A stretch of 63,029 nt of DNA from Candidatus Omnitrophota bacterium. GTDB taxonomy: Bacteria; Omnitrophota; Gorgyraeia; Zapsychrales; Zapsychraceae. The notes beneath the pieces are model-generated. The model ran no database searches, was not told where the DNA came from, and was given only the letters and a program-made list of their open reading frames with translations. Shown here one piece after another: positions 46,310 through 62,039 of this stretch; positions within the stretch are counted from its first letter, which is position 1; every line of letters starts with the position of its first letter. The stretch spans positions 1-63,029 of the forward strand of contig JAHJCZ010000155.1 of assembly GCA_018812705.1 (NCBI GenBank), given 5' to 3'. Both the position numbers and the translations under genes were made by a program.

Positions 46310-47725
46310 TTACAAATCAGCAGATATCTCGGGGGTAATGATAGTTGGTGTAATAAAGATCAATAAGTCAGTTTTATCAATATCCTTAGAAGTCTTGGTA
46401 AATAATTTTCCAAATATCGGGATATCTCCTAAAAATGGCACTTTTTTCTTTACATCTACTACTTTATCCTTAACTAAGCCGCCAATAACCAAAGTTTCAC
46501 CATCCTTAACCATAACTTTAGTAGAAGCTTGCTCAATACTTAGTTTTGGAACTGCAGAACCACTTGCAGCATCTGTAACATCACCTAAATTATCAGTTAT
46601 ACTTGGTTCAACATCAAGCGTAATGATCCCTGCAGCTAAACTAACATGCGGAGTAACTTTCAAGACTATTCCTATTTTTTTATACTCCCAGCCTGATAGT
46701 TGCCAGCTTCCGGTTTCGTCATTAAAAAACTTTAATGGATATGGGTGCTCAGTTCCCACATCAATCCTTGCTTCATGATTATCCAATGTGACAATTCTAG
46801 GATTAGAAAGAATATTCGTATCTGTTCTTTCTGCTAACATTTTGAACACCGCTTGTAAATTCGCAAAACTAAGAGTTCCATTAGTAATTGCAGAAGCAGT
46901 TGATGTTACTCCACCAGTATCTACATCCGGGTTGATATATTTATTATTCATTACAGGGGGTGTGAACGGAAATGTATGTGTTATGGAAGAACCCGTAACA
47001 GAAGCTTGCGTAGTCCATTCAATCCCAAGATGCTCACTATCATCTAAAACTGTTTCAATAATCTTACTTTCAATTAGAACTTGTGGAGTAGTAGCATCCA
47101 GGCCTTTAATGATTTTTGCCATTATAACTTGTTTGGTTGCTGTGTCTGTAACGATCAGAGTATTAGTTCTTTCATCGAAGTTAACGTTCCCTCTTTCTGA
47201 TTTCATTTTTTCAAGAGATTCGACGATCTCTGATGCCTTTCCAAAATTAAGCATAAATATTTCGGTCTCTAAAGGCTCTTGCTCCGAAAGAAGAAGAGAA
47301 TCCTCTCTTCTTTTTTTCATATCTTCAATAGTGGTAACAACGATTATATTTCCCTTTTGCTCATATGCATATCCATATGTTTGCAATATTACTTCCAGAG
47401 CTTGTTCCCAAGGAACATCCTTAAGTTGTATCGTAACTACCCCGACTACTTCAGGACTTGTAACAATATTTATACCACTTTTAAAAGCAAGTATTTTCAG
47501 GACATTCCTAATATCCGCTTCTCGGAAATCCAAGCTTACTTCCCCTCCATCAGACATCATAACATCATCTGCTGATTGAGAAGCATCCTCAACTTCAGAA
47601 CCAGCAGCATTTTGAGCATTAAGTCTTCCAACGTCTTTTTGGGCGAAAACACAATCAACTTTAACAAAAGAGAGCATCATAAATAACCCTAAGATTAAAA
47701 TTATCAATAGATTTTTCCTGGACAT
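46310..47725 (-). CDS. pilQ: Type IV pilus secretin (short, no AMIN domains)
   Basis: SLDFREADIR N0 domain, DERTNTLIV, QVLIESKIIE, LSNPRIVTLDN, VPFLGDIPIFG.LF; follows pilMNOP. Confidence 0.92.
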   Translation of the reverse strand: MSRKNLLIILILGLFMMLSFVKVDCVFAQKDVGRLNAQNAAGSEVEDASQSADDVMMSDGGEVSLDFREADIRNVLKILAFKSGINIVTSPEVVGVVTIQLKDVPWEQALEVILQTYGYAYEQKGNIIVVTTIEDMKKRREDSLLLSEQEPLETEIFMLNFGKASEIVESLEKMKSERGNVNFDERTNTLIVTDTATKQVIMAKIIKGLDATTPQVLIESKIIETVLDDSEHLGIEWTTQASVTGSSITHTFPFTPPVMNNKYINPDVDTGGVTSTASAITNGTLSFANLQAVFKMLAERTDTNILSNPRIVTLDNHEARIDVGTEHPYPLKFFNDETGSWQLSGWEYKKIGIVLKVTPHVSLAAGIITLDVEPSITDNLGDVTDAASGSAVPKLSIEQASTKVMVKDGETLVIGGLVKDKVVDVKKKVPFLGDIPIFGKLFTKTSKDIDKTDLLIFITPTIITPEISADL

Positions 47726-47726
47726 A

Positions 47727-48086
47727 TTAATCCTCCTTTTTTAACTGCAACTCAAAAATCTTGTTTCCTTTAATTAGATATACCTTTTCTCTTTTAATCT
47801 CATGAACAACAAAGTCACCTACCTTATCCTTAAGCTTAACAATTTTACCATTGATTATAGCAAGACTACTATCTCCATCACCTAGCATCACGCCCTCGAG
47901 AGATAAGTCAGAAATTGAAAGACTATCATCATAATTCTCAATAATGCCCTCAGTGCTTACCAAAGGCAGCATTGGGTCCCTTTTGCCTTGATCATCATAT
48001 TTTAAAATATCCTCTTCGGCAAAAGTAGCATTTACCGTCATAACGATCAAACAACAAACAATAATTGTAAATTTCATAAACCTCAT
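47727..48086 (-). CDS. pilP: PilP-like pilus assembly protein
   Basis: YDDQGKRDP..PL motif, L.GV...A.ING..V..G..V HR-domain pattern, synteny. Confidence 0.7.
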   Translation of the reverse strand: MRFMKFTIIVCCLIVMTVNATFAEEDILKYDDQGKRDPMLPLVSTEGIIENYDDSLSISDLSLEGVMLGDGDSSLAIINGKIVKLKDKVGDFVVHEIKREKVYLIKGNKIFELQLKKED

Positions 48087-48095
48087 ATATTATTC

Positions 48096-48698
48096 CTACT
48101 TTTTTCCTTTTAACTCCTCATAAACAACAGCATCCAATGTTATCTCCACTAAATGTTTTTTCTCTCCTCTTGATGATATGATCCCGAAAGAGCTCACTTT
48201 AAAGAATATGTCACCACGTTCAAGTTCACTTAAAAACCTTCCAAAATCATGATAACCGCTCGTAGCCTTAATAAATATTGGCAAGCTGTAATAACGCCTC
48301 TCCTCATTCTCTAATAATATTTGCTGATCTTGCGCATCCGGCATGATCTGATCGATTTTAACTCCATTGTCATCAGCCATTCGAGAAATATTTTCCAGAA
48401 TAAGAGGAACTTCTTCTTTAAATTTCAGTTTTGCATTTGATTTTGCTACATCATCACTTATTTTTGCAACTTCTAATTCGTACTGTTTTGATCTTAGGAT
48501 ATCATCTTTAGCTTTCTTAATATCTTCCGATAGCGATCGAATTTCTGGGCCGATCTTAGATAAAGAAGCTATCTGCGGCCTCATAAGAACAAAATAATCT
48601 AAAAGAAAGACTGAAAATAAGATGCCACCCAAAATATAGTAGATAACTTTTTCATCTACGCTTTCTATATAGGACGATATTTTGTTCTGCAATGTCAT
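48096..48698 (-). CDS. pilO: Type IV pilus assembly protein PilO
   Basis: N-terminal TM, coiled coil, EVP.ILE.I, YHDFGRFL..LE. Confidence 0.88.
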   Translation of the reverse strand: MTLQNKISSYIESVDEKVIYYILGGILFSVFLLDYFVLMRPQIASLSKIGPEIRSLSEDIKKAKDDILRSKQYELEVAKISDDVAKSNAKLKFKEEVPLILENISRMADDNGVKIDQIMPDAQDQQILLENEERRYYSLPIFIKATSGYHDFGRFLSELERGDIFFKVSSFGIISSRGEKKHLVEITLDAVVYEELKGKK

Positions 48699-49285
48699 TT
48701 TTTTCCCAATCTAGATGTTATTAAAAAATCAGCAACATCCACTTTCTTGATCTTTCTCATTTGTATTGAGCCTAATTCCAGATCCGTTAGATCCGTCAAA
48801 AAATTTTCATCTTGCTTAAGATTTGCAGTAAATTTATGTACTCCGATCATTTCTTTATTTTGTCTGGAGATTGCACTACCCTCTACAAAGAACGCATCTT
48901 CATTAAACGCTATCTTCCTTAGCCAAACCCCTTTGGGAAGGTTATCGCTTAAAATATTCATTTTCTGTGACCAAATGACCTTTTCCTCTTCTGTAAGTTT
49001 CTTTATTGCGCTTTGCTTTTTCTGAAGCATCCTAAGTTCACTGATCACAACATCAACTTTCTCTTTTTCCGGAGCGATCTCCTCCCAAGATAGTTTTAAT
49101 TTATTATGGGTTGCTAACTTAGACACATTAATGACAAGTAAAATAACATGAACCAAAAATAGCAATATGATTAATCCTCCACCTAGTCCAATAACTACCT
49201 CAAGAGGCAGCTTAAATCCTCCGACAAAGAAAACCTTCTTCTTTTTTTTCCTTAAATGTAACGGAACTAAATTGATCTCAATCAT
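48695..49285 (-). CDS. pilN: Type IV pilus assembly protein PilN
   Basis: IEINLVP PilM-binding motif, TM helix, LP.GVWL; start moved to ATG 49285. Confidence 0.9.
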   Translation of the reverse strand: MIEINLVPLHLRKKKKKVFFVGGFKLPLEVVIGLGGGLIILLFLVHVILLVINVSKLATHNKLKLSWEEIAPEKEKVDVVISELRMLQKKQSAIKKLTEEEKVIWSQKMNILSDNLPKGVWLRKIAFNEDAFFVEGSAISRQNKEMIGVHKFTANLKQDENFLTDLTDLELGSIQMRKIKKVDVADFLITSRLGKK

Positions 49286-50333
49286 ATTCATATAAAGCCA
49301 ATCCAAAGGCAACTCCCAGCTGAAGAGCCTTTTTGTTCAATTCATCAACATTTATTTCTGGTGAGACGCTTAAAGCCTTAAGTGGATTCCAACTTGCAAC
49401 TTCCATTTCTAAATTGTCCCCCAAAACATCAATGATACCGTCTAGCAAAGAGCCTCCACCAGTTACGAGCAATTTATTCACCTCTTTACTTTTTTCTGTG
49501 GAAAAATAATCAATAGACAACCTTAATTCCTGAACAATATTCATAAGAGTCGACTCACAAGCAGCTCGTACTTCACTAACTCTTTTCTCTGGTTGACATT
49601 TTAGCTTTTCAGCTTCGTCTAAACTAATCCCCAAGGTATTGCTTATTCTCTTTGTAAAATCAGTTCCACCTACAAAAATATCTCGGGTAAATCTTGGAGA
49701 TTTGTTTGCAATTATCATGAATGTGCTTACAGACTCTCCAATATCCAACAATGCCACTATTTCATCTTTACCTTCATCTTCTTTTTCTAATGAAAAATTC
49801 AAAGCATTGACCAATGCAGCTGGGTTCAAACCAATAAATTCTGCCTGGTATCCTAAGCTTGAAATAAGCTGCGTTCTCTGGTCAATCATCTCTTTTTTTG
49901 CTGCAGATGCCATAACAGCCATTTGCTTGCTCTTCTTGTCACCATCTAAAATATAACAATCTGTATAAATTTGATCTTGAGAAAACGGAAAATATTTATC
50001 AGCTTCTATAGAAAAAGAGTTGCGCATATCATCCAAAGCCATTCTAGGCATATCAATATAACGGATCAAAGTACCTTTTCCAAAAACAGCAGTATATAGA
50101 GTATGTGGCGGTTTTTTTAATTTTGCAATTAATGTCTTTATCGCTTCTGCTGTCCCATTTTTTCGTGAGGATTCAGTTGCCCAGCTAACTAACTCATACT
50201 CGTTATTCTCTTTTTTTATTTCAACTAACTTACAACTATTTAAACCAATATCTATTCCAACAGCTGTGCCTTTAGGCTTGTCAGGAAGAAATTTCTTTAT
50301 TATACCAAAATAGTTGTTTAGCAATGAATTCAT
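49278..50333 (-). CDS. pilM: Type IV pilus assembly protein PilM
   Basis: Actin-like VGIDIG, LDIGE, GG.DFT..I, LVTGGGS, A.GLAL. Confidence 0.93.
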   Translation of the reverse strand: MNSLLNNYFGIIKKFLPDKPKGTAVGIDIGLNSCKLVEIKKENNEYELVSWATESSRKNGTAEAIKTLIAKLKKPPHTLYTAVFGKGTLIRYIDMPRMALDDMRNSFSIEADKYFPFSQDQIYTDCYILDGDKKSKQMAVMASAAKKEMIDQRTQLISSLGYQAEFIGLNPAALVNALNFSLEKEDEGKDEIVALLDIGESVSTFMIIANKSPRFTRDIFVGGTDFTKRISNTLGISLDEAEKLKCQPEKRVSEVRAACESTLMNIVQELRLSIDYFSTEKSKEVNKLLVTGGGSLLDGIIDVLGDNLEMEVASWNPLKALSVSPEINVDELNKKALQLGVAFGLALYEYD

Positions 50334-50555: not shown

Positions 50556-50951
50556 TTATTGCTGACTTAAAACTCCACCTGTTGTAACTGTAAAATGCGT
50601 AGTTCCTGATGTTCCAAGACTCATAGCATTTGCATCAAAAGTATAATAACCTGCATTAAACGTACATGCATAAGTAAAACCTGATGATGCCTGTCCACAA
50701 TAAGCTGCGTTAAGATAAGGTGGTGTTGCGCCGGTCAATGAAGCTTCCGCTCCTGGATACACACCATTTGCAGATGTTTGGAATGTTTCTGCCGCTGTTG
50801 ACATCGTCTTAAGCGTGCTTTGTGCTAATGCATCATTTGCTGAAATCTTAGCTCTTAGCAAGTTTGGAATTGCAATTGCTGCTAACAAAGCGATAATTGC
50901 AACAACGATCATGATTTCTACTAGCGTAAAACCTTTTTGGCTCATTCTCAT
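50556..50951 (-). CDS. pilA: Major type IV pilin (class III signal peptide)
   Basis: MRMSQKG/FTLVEIMIVVAIIALLAAIAIPN with G-1, F+1, E+5; two C-terminal Cys; strong AGGAGG SD; own terminator. Confidence 0.9.
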   Translation of the reverse strand: MRMSQKGFTLVEIMIVVAIIALLAAIAIPNLLRAKISANDALAQSTLKTMSTAAETFQTSANGVYPGAEASLTGATPPYLNAAYCGQASSGFTYACTFNAGYYTFDANAMSLGTSGTTHFTVTTGGVLSQQ

Positions 50952-51474: not shown

Positions 51475-52497
51475 TTACTTGTTTTTAATTTCCTGAATTT
51501 GTTTCTCAAAATCAGAGACCTTCTTAAGCAACATCTTCTTTTCATTCTTGATCGCAACCAAATTTTCGATTAATTGACGCTCTCCCTCTTCCCCACTATC
51601 TAAATTCAAATTACTAGCCTTTAGTTTATCTTTAGCAATAGAAAGTATCGATTTCAGGCTGTCCTTTTGATCGTTTAAAGCTTTTATTTCCTTTAACAGC
51701 TCTTCCTTTCGGCTTTCTCTTTCTTCACTAACGTTTGAAATCTCTTTTTGTATTTTGTCCTCTTCTTCTAAAACAATCTTAAGCTCATCTTCAATTATCA
51801 ACAATTGCTGTTTTAAAAGACTTCTTTTTTTACTAACTTCTTCAGCTTCAGATAAAGGCCGAATATTATTATTTGTAACTTTGGTCAATTGCCTTTGCAA
51901 CGCTTCGATCTCATCCCCACTTGTTTCAATTTGTTCGATCAACTGCTCCTTAATATTATCTTCTGCACCTTTACTTTTTTTAATATTCAAATTATCGATC
52001 TTCTGTTGGACATCAACAATGTATTTATTGACTTTAGCAATTTCTTGGAGCACTTCGTCTTCTTTGGATCTCTTAGCATCTAAATTTTTCTCTAAATTCT
52101 GTTGCTCCCTGACCATTTTACTAACATCATTAGTTAGGCTGCTCGCGTTTTTCTCAAAGAATATGAGTTCTTGTTCTTCTGCATTTATATCATCAATGCT
52201 CGCATTCTGAACTATCCACTTCATTTTATCTTCTTCTAGACGTACTAACTCTGCCTTCAATGTCCGGATATTATCACGAAGTTTTTCATTTTCAGAGAAA
52301 AGCCATACGTTCTTCTGAGCAACTTCTTGTGCGCTATTTTTTAAACTTAACAAGCTATACTCAAGAACTTTTATTGCTGACAAATTTGCTCTTCTCTCTG
52401 CATAACAAAAATGAATATTAAACTGAATAAATATTATAGTTAGAAATAGAGCTTTTATCATTGTTGTTCTATAAACAATCTTAACACTTCTATACAT
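51475..52497 (-). CDS. Uncharacterised exported long coiled-coil protein
   Basis: Hydrophobic N-terminus ending CYA/E (start possibly ATG 52461), then about 300 aa of E/K/Q/L-rich heptad-like sequence. Confidence 0.75.
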   Translation of the reverse strand: MYRSVKIVYRTTMIKALFLTIIFIQFNIHFCYAERRANLSAIKVLEYSLLSLKNSAQEVAQKNVWLFSENEKLRDNIRTLKAELVRLEEDKMKWIVQNASIDDINAEEQELIFFEKNASSLTNDVSKMVREQQNLEKNLDAKRSKEDEVLQEIAKVNKYIVDVQQKIDNLNIKKSKGAEDNIKEQLIEQIETSGDEIEALQRQLTKVTNNNIRPLSEAEEVSKKRSLLKQQLLIIEDELKIVLEEEDKIQKEISNVSEERESRKEELLKEIKALNDQKDSLKSILSIAKDKLKASNLNLDSGEEGERQLIENLVAIKNEKKMLLKKVSDFEKQIQEIKNK

Positions 52498-52521: not shown

Positions 52522-53727
52522 TTATATTACTTGTGTAATGTTCAAAATAGGCATAAACAAAGCAATAACAATAAAACCAATAACGATACCAAGAACCCCT
52601 ATTATCAAAGGCTCAATAATGCTAGTCAAACCTTCAACTGCTGCGTCAACTTGATCATCATAAAATTCTGCTATTTTTAGAAGCATTTTTTCCATCTGCC
52701 CCGATTTCTCGCCAATGCTGATCATCCTTGTAACCATGGGTGGAAACACTTTGCTTTTACTTAATGGTGTCGCAATACTTTCTCCCTCGCGAACACAATT
52801 TTTTACATCTTCAACAACATCTTCTAGAACAGTATTTCCAATAGTCTTACCAACTATATCTAGAGATTCCAGAATTGGAACACCGCTTTGTATAAGCGTA
52901 GCAAGCGTTCTACTAAAACGACTAATCGCAACTTTACAAAAAAGCTCGCCAAAAAGAGGCATATTCAAAAGTGCGCCATCTATTGCACGCGCACCTTTTT
53001 CAGTTCTATACCATCTTCCAATAAGAAAAATTGCTATCACTAAAAAGCCAATTAGCCAAAGCAAATAACTTTTAAGCCCTTCGCTTATGCCAATTAACAT
53101 TTGAGTCATAGCAGGCAATTCCCTATCAAAAGAATCATATATACCAGCAAAAGTTGGAACAACTTTAACTAATAAAATAACCGTAATAATTGTCGCCATT
53201 GAAACAATTACTGAAGGATATATTAATGCAGCCTTGACTTTCCTTTGCAATTTAAGAGATTTCTCCATATATGTTGATATGCGGTCTAATACTTGGCTTA
53301 AAACACCACCAGTCTCTCCGACTCTTACCATATTTACAAAAAGAGTATCAAAAACATTAGGATGTTTATTGAATGCTGCAGAAAGACTTGCCCCATGCTG
53401 AATATCATCATAAACATTTGTTAGCACCTTTTGAAATAAAGGATGGGCCACTTGGTCTCGTAAAGCATCAATTCCTTGTAGTATAGGAATACCTGCATCG
53501 ACCATTGTCGCTAATTGTCTTGTGAAAATAACGATCTCATCAGGCTTTACTTTTTTTGATTGAAAAGAAGATCCAGGCGCTTTGGAATCCTTAATTTCAG
53601 CAACAGATATAATAACAAGTTTCTTTTTTCTTAAAGCTTCAATTACTGATTCTTTGTTATCAGCAGAAATCTTTCCGGAAACATTCCCTGATTCTGCATT
53701 CTTTGCAACATATTTAAACGTCGCCAT
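52522..53727 (-). CDS. pilC: Type IV pilus inner-membrane platform protein (GspF/PilC)
   Basis: FTRQLATMVDAGIP, GETGGVL, YP.VI, GEKSGQM, EPLII. Confidence 0.95.
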   Translation of the reverse strand: MATFKYVAKNAESGNVSGKISADNKESVIEALRKKKLVIISVAEIKDSKAPGSSFQSKKVKPDEIVIFTRQLATMVDAGIPILQGIDALRDQVAHPLFQKVLTNVYDDIQHGASLSAAFNKHPNVFDTLFVNMVRVGETGGVLSQVLDRISTYMEKSLKLQRKVKAALIYPSVIVSMATIITVILLVKVVPTFAGIYDSFDRELPAMTQMLIGISEGLKSYLLWLIGFLVIAIFLIGRWYRTEKGARAIDGALLNMPLFGELFCKVAISRFSRTLATLIQSGVPILESLDIVGKTIGNTVLEDVVEDVKNCVREGESIATPLSKSKVFPPMVTRMISIGEKSGQMEKMLLKIAEFYDDQVDAAVEGLTSIIEPLIIGVLGIVIGFIVIALFMPILNITQVI

Positions 53728-53813
53728 ATCGACCTTTCATGATAGTCATATTGTTTTCAAACCATAAGGGATTTTAGAGCGAATTACTCTAGCTTTTAAT
53801 TGAATAAGATGGT

Positions 53814-54272
53814 TTAATTTCCACCATAAACGTTATTCAATGCTTGATCAATTTCCATTCTAGTGGAAATAAAAGGCACTATTTCACAGCTTGTATCTTC
53901 CTTTAATTTTTGAATAAGCGAACTATCCAAAGGATTTGACATAACTATACTTAAAATATTACCAACACAATCTAACGGCACCAGATGGTGCTTGTAAGCT
54001 ACCTGTCTTGGAATGATATTCAAAACTTCTTTGTTTATTTCATACTGATCTATTGCGATATAAGGAAAATAACACTGTTCAGATAAAGCCGCAACAATAT
54101 CTTTTTCACTAACAAATCCCAGATTTGTTAGAATTTCACCAATGAATATCTTCTCCTTCTTCTGAAGCTTCAAAGCTCTGTTTAGCTGTTCTCTGACAAC
54201 AGTCTTTCTCTTAAGAAGAATCTCCCCTAAGCGACTTTTCTTTTGAACAAAATGTCCAGATAGAACAACCAT
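53814..54272 (-). CDS. Stand-alone MshEN (GspE/PilB N-terminal) domain protein A
   Basis: RLGEILL...QLNRALKLQ-x5-FIGEILTNLGFV...ALSEQ plus N1 subdomain; no ATPase; AAGGAG SD. Confidence 0.85.
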   Translation of the reverse strand: MVVLSGHFVQKKSRLGEILLKRKTVVREQLNRALKLQKKEKIFIGEILTNLGFVSEKDIVAALSEQCYFPYIAIDQYEINKEVLNIIPRQVAYKHHLVPLDCVGNILSIVMSNPLDSSLIQKLKEDTSCEIVPFISTRMEIDQALNNVYGGN

Positions 54273-54470
54273 GATCAGCTCCTTACATATCCATTCTCTG
54301 AATACTTATTTTACCACTAAATACATTCTTGGAAACAATAAACTTTGGTTTAGCAATATTCTAATAAAAAAATAAATTAAGCTCGCATAACAATTTTGAT
54401 AGCTCGCTACTAATTTACGGGTCACACCAGGTATTTCGTCTTTTTGATTTTGAAATATCTTTGCTTCAAT

Positions 54471-56177
54471 TTATTCATCCATAGCCACTCTTAATACTTC
54501 TTCAATAGTTATTTGTCCAGAGATGCATTTTTCAATAGCATCCTCCCAAAGAGTCACCATTCCATTGACCTCACACGCATGTCGTTTTATCTCATCAGAT
54601 GAGCATCCCCTTAATAACATATTCTTGATCTCATCTGTTACCTCTAGCACTTCCATCAAAGCCATTCTCCCAGAATAGCCTGTGCCACGGCAAGCCTCAC
54701 AACCTTTTCCATGATAGAAATCTGTATTTGGCTTGAATTTATAATCGAGCTTATCCAATACTTTTTTTGGTATCTCTACTTTTTCTTTACAGCGTTTACA
54801 AATTTTCCTACATAGTCTTTGGGCATTTACCAAAACAAGGCTAGATGCAACCAAAAATGGCTCAACTCCCATATCAACCAATCTTGTTAACGTACCAGCA
54901 GCATCATTAGTATGCAGTGTAGAAAAAACCAATTGCCCTGTTAAAGATGCTTTAACTGCTATGTCAGCTGTTTCATTATCACGAATTTCCCCGATCATTA
55001 CAATGTCAGGACTCTGTCTTAATACTGCCCTTAACCCTTCAGCAAAAGTCAATCCTATTTCAGGTCTGGCCTGGATCTGTGTCAATCCTTCAACCAAATA
55101 CTCAACTGGATCTTCAATAGTAATAATATTCTTATCAACCGTATTTAGCTCATTAATGATCGAGTATAAAGTTGTCGATTTTCCACTACCCGTAGGTCCA
55201 GTAACCAAAAACATACCAAACGGTTTAATAATGCCATTCTTTAAAACAGCCAGTGACTTTTCAGAAATACCTAAGCCATCAAGCCCAACAGCTAAGTTAC
55301 TTTTATCAAGAACACGCAAAACAACTTTTTGCCCAAATGTCGTAGGCAGAACAGAAACACGAAAATCAATTTCTTTTCCAGCGACCTTCATCTTAAAACG
55401 CCCATCTTGAGGAACATAATTTGAAGTTATATCTAACCTAGACATTATCTTTATTCTTACGATAACAGCATTCTGGTTTTCCTTTGGCAAATTCAAAATA
55501 TCTCTCAAAACGCCATCTATTCTATAACGAACTCTAACACCCTCTTCTGAAGGTTCAATATGAATATCAGAAGCTTTCTGCCTAATAGCTTCTTTGACAA
55601 TAAGATTGACCATTCGAATAACCGGGGCCTTCTCTCCATCATCTGCAGAACCACCACTTCCATCTTCTTCTTGGTCCATGACTATTTCAAAATCATCGAC
55701 CTGAATATCCTGAGTAATTTCAGTCACACTCACACTTTCCGGAACTCCGTAATAATTATCAATTGCCTTAATGATTTCCGTATTAGTGCTCATAACCACA
55801 TCGATATCTTTGCTAGTGATGCTTTTTAGATCATCAACAATAAAAACATCTAGAGGGTCTGAAAGAGCCACCGTAAGGGTATTCTCGAGCAGCGAAAGAG
55901 GAATTATTTTATATTGCCTTGCAACTCTCTCCGGCACGATCTCTTGCAAATAAGGATCGATCTTATATTTACTTAAATTAATAAAAGGAATATTTAACTC
56001 TCGAACAAGAAGCATCAAAAGGTCATCCTCGTTTATCAAACCTTGTTCGATCAAAGCTTTATCAAGACCAATATTCTTTCTCTTTTGCAAGACAATAGCA
56101 GCATCAAGTTCTTTTTTGCTGATCTGCTGAGTCTCAATAAGTGTATTTAATATTTTATCTTTTAATGTCTTTGTCAC
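54471..56177 (-). CDS. pilB: Type IV pilus extension ATPase, paralog 1
   Basis: GPTGSGKST, TIEDPVEY, MIGEIRD, STLHTND, CKRC/CEAC Zn site. Confidence 0.9.
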   Translation of the reverse strand: MTKTLKDKILNTLIETQQISKKELDAAIVLQKRKNIGLDKALIEQGLINEDDLLMLLVRELNIPFINLSKYKIDPYLQEIVPERVARQYKIIPLSLLENTLTVALSDPLDVFIVDDLKSITSKDIDVVMSTNTEIIKAIDNYYGVPESVSVTEITQDIQVDDFEIVMDQEEDGSGGSADDGEKAPVIRMVNLIVKEAIRQKASDIHIEPSEEGVRVRYRIDGVLRDILNLPKENQNAVIVRIKIMSRLDITSNYVPQDGRFKMKVAGKEIDFRVSVLPTTFGQKVVLRVLDKSNLAVGLDGLGISEKSLAVLKNGIIKPFGMFLVTGPTGSGKSTTLYSIINELNTVDKNIITIEDPVEYLVEGLTQIQARPEIGLTFAEGLRAVLRQSPDIVMIGEIRDNETADIAVKASLTGQLVFSTLHTNDAAGTLTRLVDMGVEPFLVASSLVLVNAQRLCRKICKRCKEKVEIPKKVLDKLDYKFKPNTDFYHGKGCEACRGTGYSGRMALMEVLEVTDEIKNMLLRGCSSDEIKRHACEVNGMVTLWEDAIEKCISGQITIEEVLRVAMDE

Positions 56178-57946
56178 TACTTCTTTTTATCCTCATCAGG
56201 TGCTGTCAATCTCAAAACTTCTTCTATTGTTGTTAACCCTTCTACGGCTTTCACCAAACCATCTTCTCTCATAGTCCTCATACCTTCTTGACGGGCAATT
56301 TGTTTAATCTTTATTTCGCCTACACGCGCCAATACAGCCTCTTTTACTTTTTGGCTAAAAACAAGGATTTCAGTAATACCAACCCGGCCTTTATAACCAG
56401 TATTAAAACAATGCTTACAACCTTTTGGCCTCATAACTTCAATATTCTGTTTTGGGTATAATTTATCAAGTCCTACTTTTGAAGTTATCTCAGGAGTAAC
56501 TATATACGACTCACAACATTTCGGACATACCCTTCTTAGTAGCCTTTGAGCAATGATAGCCAACACTGAAGAACATATTAAAAATGGCTCAATTCCCATA
56601 TTCATCATGCGGACTATTGAACCAGCAGCAGTTGTTGTGTGAAGAGAGCTCAAAACAAGGTGACCAGTTAAAGCAGCCTTAACAGCAATGTCTAATGTTT
56701 CTTTATCGCGAATTTCTCCTATCATAATAATATCTGGATCTTGTCTAAGAATTGATCTTAGGCTCGAGGAAAAAGTTAATCCCATTTTGGGTTTTATATT
56801 AACTTGAATGATCCCTTTCATCTGATATTCAACTGGATCCTCAACAGTAACGATATTCTTCTCAGGAGAGTCTACATACTTTAAAATGGAATAAAGTGTC
56901 GTCGTCTTACCACTTCCTGTCGGCCCACAAGTTAAAATCAAGCCATGTGGCTTCACTGAACATTCCTTTAAACGCTGCAAAGCTGTTTCTTCAAAACCTA
57001 AATTTTCAACATCAAGCACTGTTCCCTGCTGATCTAAAACCCTTAATACGATTTTCTCACCAACAGCCGTAGGCAAAACATTAACACGAAAGTCAACCTC
57101 TCTGTCCCCTGATATAATGGTCTTAAATCTTCCATCTTGAGGCAACCTGTGTTCTGAAATATCTAAATTTGAAATAACCTTTATTCTTGAAACCAAAGGA
57201 AAGTGCAACACTTTTGTCATTCGATCAATCTCTCGAATAACCCCATCAATTCTGTACCTAATGCGGACTGCTTTTTCTAATGGCTCAATAAACACATCGC
57301 TGGCTTTTGCAAAGACTGCTTGCTGGATAATCGTGTCAGTTAACTTAATAATTGGCGCCTCATCAGAGATTTCCTCAACAGATGACTGGCCATCGCTATG
57401 TCCATCTTTAATCAATTCAAGATCTTCAGTATCTCTAAAATCCTGGATTATCTCATCAAAGGTCTCACTATTTTTTTCCTGCTCTGGACTTTCCCTATCT
57501 TGCCCATCCTCCTGCTTAAAATAATATTTCTCAATAGCATTATGAATATCCGAAACCCTACATATAATTGGAATAATCGTATAGCCTGTCAGAGCTTTAA
57601 CATTATCTATGATAAATATATTTAATGGATCAGCCATCGCTAGGGTCAACTGATCTCCCAATAAAGAAACAGGTATAATTTGATATTTGATGGCGATATC
57701 TTTTGGAATAGTTTGAATTACATCTGGAGAAATATTGAAGCTAACGATCTTGATTAACGGCAGCTCAAGGCTTTCACTTAAAACTTGAGTCAATTGATCT
57801 TGACTCACAAAGTTCATTTCAACGAGTATCTTACTTAATTCCCCTCCTGCTCTCTTCTGCTCAAGTAAAGCTTTTTCAAGCTCCTTTGCAGTAATAAGCT
57901 CATCTCGAATAAGAATTTCTTTTAAACGATCTTTAAAAGATGCCAT
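56177..57946 (-). CDS. pilB: Type IV pilus extension ATPase, paralog 2
   Basis: GPTGSGKTT, TVEDPVEY, MIGEIRD, SSLHTT, CPKC/CKHC Zn site. Confidence 0.9.
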   Translation of the reverse strand: MASFKDRLKEILIRDELITAKELEKALLEQKRAGGELSKILVEMNFVSQDQLTQVLSESLELPLIKIVSFNISPDVIQTIPKDIAIKYQIIPVSLLGDQLTLAMADPLNIFIIDNVKALTGYTIIPIICRVSDIHNAIEKYYFKQEDGQDRESPEQEKNSETFDEIIQDFRDTEDLELIKDGHSDGQSSVEEISDEAPIIKLTDTIIQQAVFAKASDVFIEPLEKAVRIRYRIDGVIREIDRMTKVLHFPLVSRIKVISNLDISEHRLPQDGRFKTIISGDREVDFRVNVLPTAVGEKIVLRVLDQQGTVLDVENLGFEETALQRLKECSVKPHGLILTCGPTGSGKTTTLYSILKYVDSPEKNIVTVEDPVEYQMKGIIQVNIKPKMGLTFSSSLRSILRQDPDIIMIGEIRDKETLDIAVKAALTGHLVLSSLHTTTAAGSIVRMMNMGIEPFLICSSVLAIIAQRLLRRVCPKCCESYIVTPEITSKVGLDKLYPKQNIEVMRPKGCKHCFNTGYKGRVGITEILVFSQKVKEAVLARVGEIKIKQIARQEGMRTMREDGLVKAVEGLTTIEEVLRLTAPDEDKKK

Positions 57947-58395
57947 TATTTTTGTTTATAGTATTTATCAATGGATTGTTTAATATCACTAGACGTGCTT
58001 ACAAAGAACTGAACAATACATCCTGTAATCAGTTCAATGTCCTCTACTGATTTCACATTTAACGGATCAGACATTGCTATTGTTAAACTTTTACCTATCT
58101 TATCAATTGGGATCAGACAAAACTGTCTACAAACATTTTCCGGAATTGCATTGATCACTTCATCATCAATTTCATAATTTAGTAAGGGTAAATATGGGAA
58201 ACCATACTGACATGTTATTGCTTGCGCAATATCTTTCTCTGTGGCAAAATTCAATTCAACTAGAACTTCGCCTATCAGTCCACCATTCTTTTCTCTGTAC
58301 TCCAAAGCCTCTTCGATTTGAGCATGATTTATAACGCCTCTTTCTATCAGAAGCTCTCCCAACTTTTTATGAGTATCTCTGTTAAATTGTTTCAT
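57946..58395 (-). CDS. Stand-alone MshEN domain protein B
   Basis: KLGELLIERGVI...IEEALEYR-x5-LIGEVLVELNF...AITCQ plus N1 subdomain; no ATPase. Confidence 0.85.
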   Translation of the reverse strand: MKQFNRDTHKKLGELLIERGVINHAQIEEALEYREKNGGLIGEVLVELNFATEKDIAQAITCQYGFPYLPLLNYEIDDEVINAIPENVCRQFCLIPIDKIGKSLTIAMSDPLNVKSVEDIELITGCIVQFFVSTSSDIKQSIDKYYKQK

Positions 58396-58757
58396 AGAAA
58401 TCTAAAATCAACTTTTACAATCAATGGTATATAATTAATATTATTAAGCATAATAACTCTACTATACTTATATAAACATAACAATTAATAATTAATTGTT
58501 TATCAAAAATATGCTAAAAAAATAGAAATATTCTAAATTTTAAATAATTTCTTCTCTTCTGCGAAAACTAACCAGTTCATTAACAAACTTTATAAGCTCT
58601 AACAAATTGACTTCATAATCAAGAATACAAGAAGATATAGAAAAGCAACAACTAAAGAAAATGCATGAGGATCTCTTAATGCGTATTTAACAAAATCGTT
58701 ATTGATACTATAAATAAAACATTTAATACCCAATACGCACACAAAAGTCAGCAGTTT

Positions 58758-59129
58758 TTATTCTTCGGTCAGTCTTTTAATGCTAGCAAGCAACTCCTCA
58801 GCATTGTAAGGTTTCATTAAATATTCATCAGCCCCTGCTTCATTCCCCCAGAACTTGTCGCTCTCTGAAGTTTTTGCTGTTAAAAGAATGACTGGAATAT
58901 GTTCTGTTTCAGCATCATCCTTGATCAGGCGGCAAACTTTATATCCATTTGGAGCCGGCATCATAACATCTAAAATCACTAAATCTGGCATATGTTCTTT
59001 TGTTAAACTTAAAGCCTCTTCTCCAGAAGCTCCAGTAATGACTTCGTATCCATTTGCTTTTAATCGTAAACTTATAACTTTAACAATTTCAGGCTCGTCA
59101 TCAATAATTAATATTTTTTTTCTAGACAT
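58758..59129 (-). CDS. Single-domain response regulator (receiver only)
   Basis: ILIIDDE, LVILDVMMP, LLTAK, YLMKPY. Confidence 0.95.
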   Translation of the reverse strand: MSRKKILIIDDEPEIVKVISLRLKANGYEVITGASGEEALSLTKEHMPDLVILDVMMPAPNGYKVCRLIKDDAETEHIPVILLTAKTSESDKFWGNEAGADEYLMKPYNAEELLASIKRLTEE

Positions 59130-59705: not shown

Positions 59706-62039
59706 CTAAGTCAATCTTTCGATTAGATCTATTACAACATTAATATTACCAGTCTTTTCAATCACTGGAATTTCACCTAATTCACCACATTCTTCTCTAA
59801 CCTCACTCAAATGTTTATCAGTAAGAACAATTATTGGAATAATTGCCAGTTGTGAATTTTGTTTCAATCTTCCCAAAACTTCATATCCATTCATATTTGG
59901 CATAACAATGTCTAGCAATATCAAGTCTACTTGCTTTGTTTTCAAATAATCAAGAGCCTCCTCGCCATCAAAAACCTGCTCTGTAATAATATCGCGTCGC
60001 TCTAATCTTGATGAAAGCAACCTGCCGATCTGTGGATGGTCATCAACAATGAGAACCTTTTTCTTTCTTTCACATTCTTCTAACGCTCTTTCTTGTAATT
60101 CATTTTTGTTCAAGCCATCTCTAGGATGCATAACAAAACCGAATTTCACTTTTATTCCTAATGCATCTTTCATCATCGCAACTCTTTCCCGAACAACACT
60201 TTTTATCTTATCTAATAAAATCATTCCACCTTTTTTATCTGTATCAGCAAGGGCGATATGAATTGTTTCTTGATCATATAATATATATTTATCTGTTGTT
60301 CTCGATACTAATCTTGCCAAAATCTCAAAAACAATATTTATTATTTCATTTGCAAAAGCTTCTCCGAACTTTGTCCTGATCATATCCATTTCAAAAAAAC
60401 GAGCAATAATAAACACCGACTCCTTGTTCTTCATTCTTGCCTCTGTAAATATTTTCTCAACATCATTATCAAATGTTTGTTTTAATTTCAATTTACTTGG
60501 TAGAGTAAAAAAGAAATTTGTGCCCTTGCCTATCTCACTCTCTGCCCATATCTGCCCACCATGAAGATCTATTAAAGATTTACTGATAGTCAAGCCTAAC
60601 CCAGTGCCTTTTATACCTGGACCATGTATCCTCCCGAACTGAGTAAACTTATCAAAGAGCTTTGAAATATTATCCTTTTCAATTCCAACTCCTGTGTCTG
60701 AAACCCTGCATAAACATCCTCCACCTTGACCTGCAATCTCAAGTTCTATTTCCCCGCCTTCAGGTGTAAACTTATGCGCATTATTCAATAAATTTGTAAC
60801 GACTTGTATTATTTTCTCTTCATCAATAAAGAAAAACATCTCATTATCAGGGAATATCGTTTTAATCTTTTGCTGCTTTGTATCTAAAACCTTTTGGTAA
60901 TCATCAGTTATTTTATTCATTGTAGATTTTAGGTCCACAATGGTCTTTCTTAACGTGATCTCTCCAGATTCTATTTTCGAAATATCTAATAAATCGTTTA
61001 CAATTGTATGTAACCTGTGAAGATTGTCCTTCGAAGCATTTAAAAGCTCTTTTTGCTCTTCATTAATCTTCCCAACTACGCCGTCTAAAATAAGATTTAT
61101 GCACTCAGTTGAGATCGCAAGTGGAGTTCTTAGCTCATGAGAAACAGTAGAGACAAAATCGGACTTCAGCTGATCCAATTTCTTAAGTTCAAAATTCTTC
61201 CTTTCAAGGTTCTTATATAGGGTCTTAATTGACTCATTGGTTTTTTGAAGCCCCCAAGATTGTTGTTCTAGCTTATCTCGAGCATTAACTAAATCCTTTT
61301 CAGCATTCCTTCTTGCTGTAATATCGCTAAATGATTCAATACCGCCAATAATTTTGCCCTCATCATTTTTTAGGATATCAGCATTCTTAAGAATAGTTAT
61401 TCTGTCCCCATTTTTTTTCTTAATAGAACACTCAGTCTCAATGATCGGCTTCTCTACATCATTACTATAAAGCCCGCAGAAAGACTCGCAGGGATATTCA
61501 GAGAACATATTACATTTTTTACCAATAACTTCTTGAGATTTATAACCTGTTAGCTCTTCCGCTTTTTTATTCCAACCAGTCACAATTTTGTTTTCATTCA
61601 CCGTAAAGACAGCACTCGGAACAACTTTAAAAATACGCTCCAAATCCTTTTTTGCTTTAATTACAGCTTCCTCAGCACGCTTATATACTGTTATATCGCT
61701 CATTAAATGAATTGAACCTAATAGATCTTTATTATCATCAAAAAGAGGTGCCGTTTGAACAAAGAACCATTTATTAAAAAGAGGCTCCCAATATTCCTTT
61801 TTTTCATATTTTTTGGAGTCCTTTAACGCACAATATGGACAATCAGATATAGGTTCATCCTTACCATGCATGACCTCATAGCATTTCTTGTTCAAGAACG
61901 CACTTTCGTCCTTATCAGTAAATTTTAAAAATGCCTTATTCACTTTCTTTATTCCATGATCTAGATCAAGAATAAAAATAAATTCTTCTAAAGAATCAAA
62001 AGCGGGAGACCAAAATCGATTGTAATCAATGTTGTTCAT
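59706..62039 (-). CDS. Cytoplasmic hybrid sensor kinase: PAS-PAS-HisKA-HATPase-degenerate GGDEF-REC
   Basis: SHELRTPL, NLLNNAHKF, DTGVGI, GTGLGL; GGDEF-fold segment ...RTTDKYILYDQETI...HPRDG; REC VLIVDD/LLDIVMP; no TM helix seen. Confidence 0.88.
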   Translation of the reverse strand: MNNIDYNRFWSPAFDSLEEFIFILDLDHGIKKVNKAFLKFTDKDESAFLNKKCYEVMHGKDEPISDCPYCALKDSKKYEKKEYWEPLFNKWFFVQTAPLFDDNKDLLGSIHLMSDITVYKRAEEAVIKAKKDLERIFKVVPSAVFTVNENKIVTGWNKKAEELTGYKSQEVIGKKCNMFSEYPCESFCGLYSNDVEKPIIETECSIKKKNGDRITILKNADILKNDEGKIIGGIESFSDITARRNAEKDLVNARDKLEQQSWGLQKTNESIKTLYKNLERKNFELKKLDQLKSDFVSTVSHELRTPLAISTECINLILDGVVGKINEEQKELLNASKDNLHRLHTIVNDLLDISKIESGEITLRKTIVDLKSTMNKITDDYQKVLDTKQQKIKTIFPDNEMFFFIDEEKIIQVVTNLLNNAHKFTPEGGEIELEIAGQGGGCLCRVSDTGVGIEKDNISKLFDKFTQFGRIHGPGIKGTGLGLTISKSLIDLHGGQIWAESEIGKGTNFFFTLPSKLKLKQTFDNDVEKIFTEARMKNKESVFIIARFFEMDMIRTKFGEAFANEIINIVFEILARLVSRTTDKYILYDQETIHIALADTDKKGGMILLDKIKSVVRERVAMMKDALGIKVKFGFVMHPRDGLNKNELQERALEECERKKKVLIVDDHPQIGRLLSSRLERRDIITEQVFDGEEALDYLKTKQVDLILLDIVMPNMNGYEVLGRLKQNSQLAIIPIIVLTDKHLSEVREECGELGEIPVIEKTGNINVVIDLIERLT

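Follow-up and report, generated by a model that had tools for sequence, protein, structure and literature searches.

Architecture of the pilus motor locus

The stretch of DNA analysed here, referred to at its full length of 63,029 nucleotides as the window (GenBank assembly GCA_018812705.1, contig JAHJCZ010000155.1), comes from a Candidatus Omnitrophota metagenome-assembled genome of 2.69 Mb that is 93% complete, and its nearest named relatives are labelled 'Omnitrophica WOR_2' or Candidatus Omnitrophota. Its minus strand carries a type IVa pilus locus, in which a stand-alone MshEN protein of 149 aa, MshEN-B (57946..58395), is followed by two tandem extension ATPases, PilB2 (56177..57946; 589 aa) and PilB1 (54471..56177; 568 aa, GTG start), by a second stand-alone MshEN protein of 152 aa, MshEN-A (53814..54272), and by the platform protein PilC (52522..53727; 401 aa), assigned to T2SSF by Pfam. 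PilC keeps its position across 120 related loci, namely 40 fetched regions classified by open reading frame (ORF) and the best 80 from GTDB species genomes, the latter found with a narrow alignment and all from close Omnitrophota relatives. On balance, we favour the view that MshEN-A and MshEN-B are free-standing receptor subunits of the pilus extension motor for cyclic di-GMP (c-di-GMP).

The stop codon of MshEN-B overlaps the start codon of PilB2 by 1 nt (TAATG, 57946), and PilB2 likewise overlaps PilB1 by 1 nt (TAGTG, 56177). An earlier sequence-only reading of the window had listed this gene order, with both overlaps, and it is borne out by the ORF listing and by direct reading of the DNA. 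Through the TAATG junction, MshEN-B is translationally coupled to PilB2. MshEN-A has spacers of 198 nt and 86 nt on its two sides.

Pfam assigns an MshEN and a T2SSE domain to each of the two ATPases. PilB2 has an intact Walker A motif, an intact Walker B motif and a TGH His-box, which in PilB1 takes the variant form TGQ. The same difference is seen in the related loci, with TGH in 106/111 of the first PilBs and TGQ in 84/98 of the second. Because the His-box difference is this consistent and both proteins carry Walker A and Walker B, the two paralogues appear to be non-equivalent.

Domain, motifs and fold of the small proteins

PF05157 (MshEN) is the sole Pfam match in each small ORF (E values of 2e-19 and 1e-15), scoring 69.6 bits in MshEN-B and 57.7 in MshEN-A at a cut-off of 23.1. 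Both ORFs stop after this domain, without fusion to T2SSE, and the stop codons are the same in independent contigs. The two proteins can be aligned over their full length with PilF, Geobacter PilB and the V. cholerae MshE structure 5HTL. Each protein has two 24-residue motifs joined by a 5-residue spacer, which read RLGEILLKRKTVVREQLNRALKLQ-KKEKI-FIGEILTNLGFVSEKDIVAALSEQ in MshEN-A and KLGELLIERGVINHAQIEEALEYR-EKNGG-LIGEVLVELNFATEKDIAQAITCQ in MshEN-B. All ligand-contact residues are present in MshEN-A (RLG...Q in motif I, FIG...Q in motif II), the Phe at position 1 of motif II being hydrophobic but outside the published set. In MshEN-B, motif I has Arg in place of the Gln (KLG...R) and motif II reads LIG...Q. 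The motifs as previously described agree with this direct reading.

AlphaFold2 models of both proteins (predicted local distance difference test, pLDDT, 88.9 for MshEN-B and 88.6 for MshEN-A) consist of four N-terminal helices followed by an alpha/beta C-subdomain. For both models, the best Foldseek match is 5HTL, the c-di-GMP-bound N-domain of V. cholerae MshE (5htl_A/B; E 1e-10 to 1e-11, TM score 0.77-0.86, root-mean-square deviation 2.0-2.7 Å), with TM scores listed as 0.78-0.83 for MshEN-B and as 0.79-0.86, at a deviation of 2.0-2.1 Å, for MshEN-A. In both lists 5HTL ranks above the non-binding GSPII-A domain of PilF. On these models, each small protein is a complete MshEN domain and nothing more, that is, a four-helix bundle with the tandem motifs and a T2SSE_N1 subdomain.

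Selection and conservation

Homology to PilB N-termini is the sole point in favour of taking the two ORFs for broken pilB fragments or assembly artefacts, an explanation that the evidence refutes. Two independent metagenome studies yielded contigs that match the window exactly, without indels, over 53700-58500; the stretch is found in groundwater and biofilm metagenomes, and the sequencing runs that contain it are of DNA only. Apparent rearrangement 'joints' in the read and contig layout were rejected: they stem from other organisms whose conserved ATPase motifs cross-match over short lengths. Measured by the Nei-Gojobori method against two genus-level relatives in which the whole locus is syntenic, the ratio of non-synonymous to synonymous substitution rates (dN/dS) is 0.04-0.07 for MshEN-B, on a par with PilB1, PilB2 and PilC (0.03-0.06), and 0.17-0.29 for MshEN-A. 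Both small genes are under purifying selection, with ratios far below 1. A tree built from N-domains separates the free proteins, as a single clade (SH-aLRT 100), from the two sets of fused N-domains, and the short ORFs recur in hundreds of genomes. Taken together, the identical independent contigs, the low dN/dS and the confident fold leave the fragment explanation almost certainly wrong. The sequence-only reading had allowed that the proteins might be broken pilB pieces not conserved as short ORFs; they are instead conserved throughout the phylum.

MshEN-A has matches in 151/151 sampled Omnitrophota genomes, the best ones lying mostly in open frames of 145-205 aa. Of the 40 classified regions, two are cut by contig ends and 38 show the order (RodA)-(PilT-like ATPase in many)-free MshEN-PilB-PilB-PilC-pilins. 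The upstream MshEN, in the position held by MshEN-B in the window, is found together with PilB in 111/120 loci, including that of Ca. Velamenicoccus archaeovorus LiM, and a distant Omnitrophota class has the same MshEN-PilB-PilB order. The number of species genomes with related loci is at least 572, and a profile search restricted to proteins of 83-260 aa gave at least 3350 clusters of short relatives, which, where named, are called 'hypothetical protein' or 'PilB'. Outside Omnitrophota, one short match is labelled Hydrogenedentota and one locus Elusimicrobia, and either may be mislabelled. Only 25/120 loci have a further free MshEN in the interval from the second PilB to PilC, so that two MshENs bracketing the ATPases, as first read from the window, is not the general design. 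The conserved unit, as judged from these loci, is one upstream MshEN with two PilBs.

The ligand-contact core is kept in the free proteins and lost in the fused domains

In V. cholerae MshE, the backbone NH groups of Gly3 and residue 4 contact the guanine, Leu2, Leu17 and Leu21 form stacking clusters and Gln24 holds the ribose-phosphate, while the substitutions G11L and G40I abolish c-di-GMP binding (PMC5013675). We scored the corresponding core, hG..h..h..Q (hydrophobic residues at positions 2, 17 and 21, Gly3 and Gln24), across the two 24-residue motifs. Both motifs retain the whole core in 100/109 upstream and 26/26 downstream free proteins, as against 0/110 N-domains of the first PilB and 0/98 of the second. 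Among upstream free proteins, Gly3 is present in 109/109 (motif I) and 108/109 (motif II) and Gln24 in 104/109 and 108/109, respectively. The fused N-domains have T, K, Q, L or I at the Gly3 position of motif I, S, R, D or E at that of motif II, and G or E instead of the motif II Gln. The window follows this pattern: the N-terminal MshEN of PilB2 (RLK.., ELS..S) lacks both Gly residues and the motif II Gln, and that of PilB1 is degenerate as well (KIL.., GLD..E). With the binding residues gone from the copies fused to the motors, it is probably the separate proteins that sense the signal.

Two other T2SSE ATPases of the same genome (C187:278-1921 and C80:2272-4020) have intact fused RLG..Q motifs, which indicates a degeneracy specific to the two PilBs with free partners. 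The genome also encodes a 758-aa T2SSE ATPase (C164:5745-8018) that has a degenerate N-domain and a C-terminal PilZ domain.

The first residue of each motif is more variable. It is Q, H, P, K or R in motif I and Leu in motif II (105/109) of the upstream proteins, and L or R in motif I and F or Y in motif II of the downstream ones. The GSPII-B domain of Thermus PilF, where the two residues are K and L, binds c-di-GMP at 6 nM; the consensus was accordingly extended to (R/K/L)LG..Q, and a hydrophobic first residue was proposed to predict very high affinity (PMC11731258). The hydrophobic first residue of motif II in the window's proteins, Leu in MshEN-B and Phe in MshEN-A, matches this high-affinity pattern.

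Origin of MshEN-A and the lost glutamine of MshEN-B

In the N-domain tree, the downstream type is monophyletic (99) and nested within the upstream type. By this placement, MshEN-A arose from the free gene by a lineage-specific duplication and is not a piece of PilB.

The motif I Gln is absent from 5/109 upstream orthologues, MshEN-B of the window among them; of its genus relatives, L009 has Arg and L012 Ser at this position. The Gln-to-Arg change is, on this comparison, a peculiarity of the genus. Loss of the Gln/Gly core in the upstream protein showed no clear link to the presence of a second MshEN (3/26 versus 4/83). Changing one Gln to Glu in PilF GSPII-B reduces affinity 77-158-fold and leaves binding in place. 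By analogy with this weakening, the MshEN-B of this genus probably binds c-di-GMP less tightly.

The sequence-only reading had seen in the Arg a sign of a different affinity or of a different ligand. A lower affinity is at most what the data suggest, and the second half of that idea finds no support. That another cyclic dinucleotide is sensed, for example 3'3'-cyclic GMP-AMP (3'3'-cGAMP), especially by MshEN-B with its Arg, is in our view very improbable. The first motif residues are non-canonical, and VcMshEN is reported to bind cGAMP as well (PMC5013675). Yet the contacts that are kept are directed at guanine in both half-sites (backbone NH of Gly3 and residue 4 to O6/N7; Asp/Asn of the C-subdomain), the context of the locus is one of c-di-GMP (riboswitch, GGDEF, HD-GYP; see below) and the Arg is an exception at the level of the genus.

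Neighbouring genes and c-di-GMP context

On the 5' side, the motor genes are preceded on the minus strand by genes for RodA/FtsW, a hybrid histidine kinase (59706..62039), a CBS protein and a single-domain response regulator (REC by Pfam; 58758..59129) that lies directly 5' of MshEN-B. The kinase has the architecture PAS-HisKA-HATPase-degenerate GGDEF-REC; its GGDEF domain (60057-60485, minus strand) reads DQETI in place of GGDEF, and an I-site-like RxxD, RTTD, lies exactly five residues upstream. Given this RxxD, the kinase may itself be a c-di-GMP receptor.

On the 3' side of PilC, on the same strand, follow a 340-aa coiled-coil protein with no Pfam match (51475-52497), which occupies the same place in the genus relatives L009 and L012, and then the only pilin gene of the locus (50556..50951), whose product has the N-terminal methylation motif by Pfam. 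The remaining type IVa pilus machine, PilM, PilN, PilO, a PilP-like protein and the PilQ secretin, is encoded at 46310..50333. Between the coiled-coil gene and the pilin gene, 5' of the latter, Rfam places a c-di-GMP-I-GGC riboswitch aptamer (RF03167, 51322..51403) at 61.5 bits, the gathering score being 59. We take the ligand of this GGC variant to be c-di-GMP, and on that assumption the riboswitch supports the view that the locus is wired to c-di-GMP. A promoter and terminator scan did no better than chance (23 versus 18.2±4.7 in shuffles) and was not used.

The window's genome has at least 11 GGDEF and 16 PilZ genes. In Velamenicoccus-type loci (L045:14115-15182, L053, L054), a REC-HD-GYP phosphodiesterase lies between the second PilB and PilC. 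In the same interval of another locus (L034:13812-14705, genome G147), a REC-GGDEF cyclase (RYGGEEF) is followed by the second MshEN. In these sister lineages, enzymes of c-di-GMP turnover accordingly lie within the pilus motor operon. Elsewhere, an MshEN domain close to the free family is fused in P0050 to a DnaA-type ATPase, in P0046 to PilZ and a large region resembling adhesins, and in P0103 to a coiled coil and PilZ.

Link to the PilB motor

Counted from the stop codon of the upstream MshEN, the first conserved motif residue of the next PilB lies at a median distance of 34 nt; in 47/109 loci the distance is 15-29 nt, which corresponds to overlapping or abutting genes as in the window. A Rosetta-stone protein of 765 aa, P0017, joins an intact MshEN, a degenerate MshEN and a T2SSE ATPase in one chain, and (MshEN)2-, (MshEN)3- and (MshEN)4-T2SSE architectures are listed by Wang et al. 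2016 (Supplementary Table 4). In mirror-tree comparisons over 88 loci, the divergence of the upstream MshEN best tracks that of the adjacent PilB's N-domain (r 0.85, or 0.74 as a partial r given PilC), the N-domain of the second PilB giving an r of 0.69 and the bootstrap difference between the two being 0.10-0.20. The co-divergence suggests a pairing of MshEN with PilB. For the downstream MshEN (23 loci) the correlations are weak, the highest being with the second PilB (0.38-0.42), and that with the N-domain of the first PilB is 0.01. Some Omnitrophota genomes (G014, G017) carry three or four free MshEN genes, and several of these adjoin other T2SSE ATPases, as at G014:C3:21557-21976, which is followed by a 583-aa ATPase. 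Pairing of a free putative sensor with an ATPase recurs, on this reading of the gene maps, at more than one locus.

The small proteins might also bind c-di-GMP without acting on PilB, their targets being PilC or PilM, a PilT-type retraction ATPase, or a local c-di-GMP buffer serving the riboswitch and the kinase. We hold this to be improbable. In 18/120 loci the upstream MshEN is preceded by a PilT-like ATPase of 354 aa, MshEN-A adjoins PilC and has its own spacers, and the divergence of the downstream MshEN shows only a weak correlation with that of any partner. However, the stop/start coupling is to the first PilB and not to PilT, no PilT gene lies beside the window's locus, the Rosetta-stone fusion is to a PilB, and the N-domain of the adjacent PilB is the partner with which co-divergence is strongest.

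Proposed mechanism

Based on the above, we propose that the ligand-binding N1 tier of the Omnitrophota PilB has been split off as a separate polypeptide, which was then duplicated in this lineage. The N1 domains still fused to both PilBs lack the Gly that serves as backbone donor, and also the motif II Gln, with which c-di-GMP would be held. Each free protein would bind one c-di-GMP. MshEN-B would associate with PilB2, probably through the N1 domain of the latter, and act like the extra GSPII domains of PilF or like one half of a split (MshEN)2-T2SSE. Ligand-driven reorientation of the subdomains could then alter the engagement of the motor with the PilM/PilC platform, such that pilus extension would rise with c-di-GMP. 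MshEN-A, a later duplicate that appears to evolve 3-5 times faster, would provide a second input, tentatively on PilB1 or PilC. The suggestion of the sequence-only reading that c-di-GMP is sensed in trans gains strongly, on comparative grounds, from the contact core kept in the free proteins and lost in all fused N-domains examined, and is further supported by the fused (MshEN)2-T2SSE relatives and by the c-di-GMP enzymes and riboswitch found in the same operons.

Several points weigh against this proposal. PilF GSPII-A does not bind even when its consensus is restored, the cause being its N-cap and inter-subdomain contacts (PMC12002112), and by this analogy a conserved motif is no guarantee of binding. 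Gln or His occupies position 1 of motif I in 76/109 upstream proteins, outside both published versions of the consensus. MshEN-B lacks the motif I Gln and is nevertheless very strongly constrained, so its essential role may not need high-affinity binding. The mirror-tree correlations are inflated by shared ancestry, and the activating sign of the regulation is taken by analogy with MshE, PilF and M. xanthus PilB. In the T2SS, or type II secretion system, the T2SSE_N1 subdomain is a docking module (GspE-GspL), and the role of the small proteins could be purely structural.

These points lead to the main rival, in which the proteins are ligand-independent adaptors or decoys whose T2SSE_N1 subdomain docks on PilM/PilC or on PilB, serving as a spacer, an assembly factor or a docking inhibitor with no nucleotide sensing. 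We consider such a role unlikely, though a serious contender. In its favour, 2BH1 and 4PHT are among the partial fold matches of both small proteins, consistent with MshEN_C/N1 being the GspL-binding module of the T2SS. The loss of the motif I Gln in the genus (Arg, or Ser in L012) goes with a dN/dS of only 0.04-0.07, GSPII-A is an instance of an MshEN-like domain that does not bind, and the Gln or His first residues depart from the consensus. On the other hand, Gly3 and Gln24 are near-universal in the upstream proteins, the downstream core is intact throughout and the fused homologues have lost exactly those positions; without a ligand, it is difficult to account for ligand-contact residues being retained so selectively, and enzymes of c-di-GMP metabolism lie inside the same operons.

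Within the c-di-GMP receptor proposal, a more speculative and rather doubtful extension is that the small proteins act as dissociable, c-di-GMP-loaded selectors at the single PilC. MshEN-B would arm PilB2 (TGH) and MshEN-A would arm or admit PilB1 (TGQ), and the level of the messenger, read at two affinities, would pick the motor or the hetero-oligomer, giving a two-gear pilus motor with exchangeable sensors.

How c-di-GMP binding at the N1/MshEN tier reaches the PilB motor is an open question in the literature (PMC11656802, PMC11731258). If the receptor proposal is correct, a separate sensor of about 150 residues next to a blind fused tier would make the coupling of sensor and motor accessible by mixing parts, and a large family now called 'hypothetical' would join the c-di-GMP receptors. 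It would also bear on the control of type IVa pili in the ultra-small, probably host-attached Omnitrophota, where these pili are thought to underlie attachment or a predatory lifestyle (PMC10066038).

Comparison with known systems

The free proteins resemble the N-domain of V. cholerae MshE (5HTL) in the two-subdomain fold, in the arrangement of two 24-residue motifs in tandem around a 5-residue spacer, and in the conserved Gly3, Leu cluster and Gln24. They differ in that the domain is here the whole protein and not the N-terminus of an ATPase, in that MshEN-B lacks the motif I Gln, and in the first motif residues, which are Arg in MshE and K/R (motif I) or L/F (motif II) here. In Thermus thermophilus PilF, (GSPII)3-T2SSE, several MshEN-type domains, binding and non-binding, likewise serve one motor, and its GSPII-B (8PDK), which attains its high affinity without arginines, shares the pattern KLG..Q-5-LLG..Q with the Omnitrophota free proteins. 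The PilF domains are, however, covalently linked, with the most N-terminal one non-binding, whereas here the protein predicted to bind is encoded by a gene of its own, and it is the domain next to the ATPase that is degenerate.

Control in trans of a PilB N-domain that is unable to bind c-di-GMP is known from Xanthomonas FimX-PilZ-PilB (7LKM/7LKO), whose PilB N-domain is among the fold matches of both small proteins. In terms of function, this complex and Thermus PilF come closest as precedents. In the Xanthomonas complex the sensor is the EAL domain of FimX, bridged by a degenerate PilZ, whereas the putative sensor here is a paralogue of the PilB N-domain itself; by Pfam the small proteins contain MshEN only, with no EAL, GGDEF or PilZ, so they are not of the FimX-PilZ type and the likeness is functional only. 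P. aeruginosa PA3740 is, like them, a free MshEN-type protein; it binds c-di-GMP and affects surface motility (PMC5013675), but its C-subdomain is highly diverged, it is not known to be encoded with PilB or to act on it, and it belongs to no conserved MshEN-PilB-PilB cassette.

Acinetobacter baylyi offers a parallel for two extension-type ATPases, PilB and TfpB, on one pilus machine (PMC11656802), although the genes for the motors there are not sisters in tandem, and a free MshEN subunit is not known from that system. In Wang 2016 Supplementary Table 4, a review of PilB cofactors and an Omnitrophota survey we found no description of a free MshEN beside PilB. Also comparable are the (MshEN)2-T2SSE ATPases of Clostridia and P0017, which have the same domains as MshEN-B plus PilB2, with the first MshEN intact and the second degenerate in P0017. 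Unlike these single polypeptides, the Omnitrophota version is split, with a stop/start overlap. By domain and predicted fold the small proteins belong to the MshEN family, but they are not ATPase-fused sensors of the MshE/PilB type.

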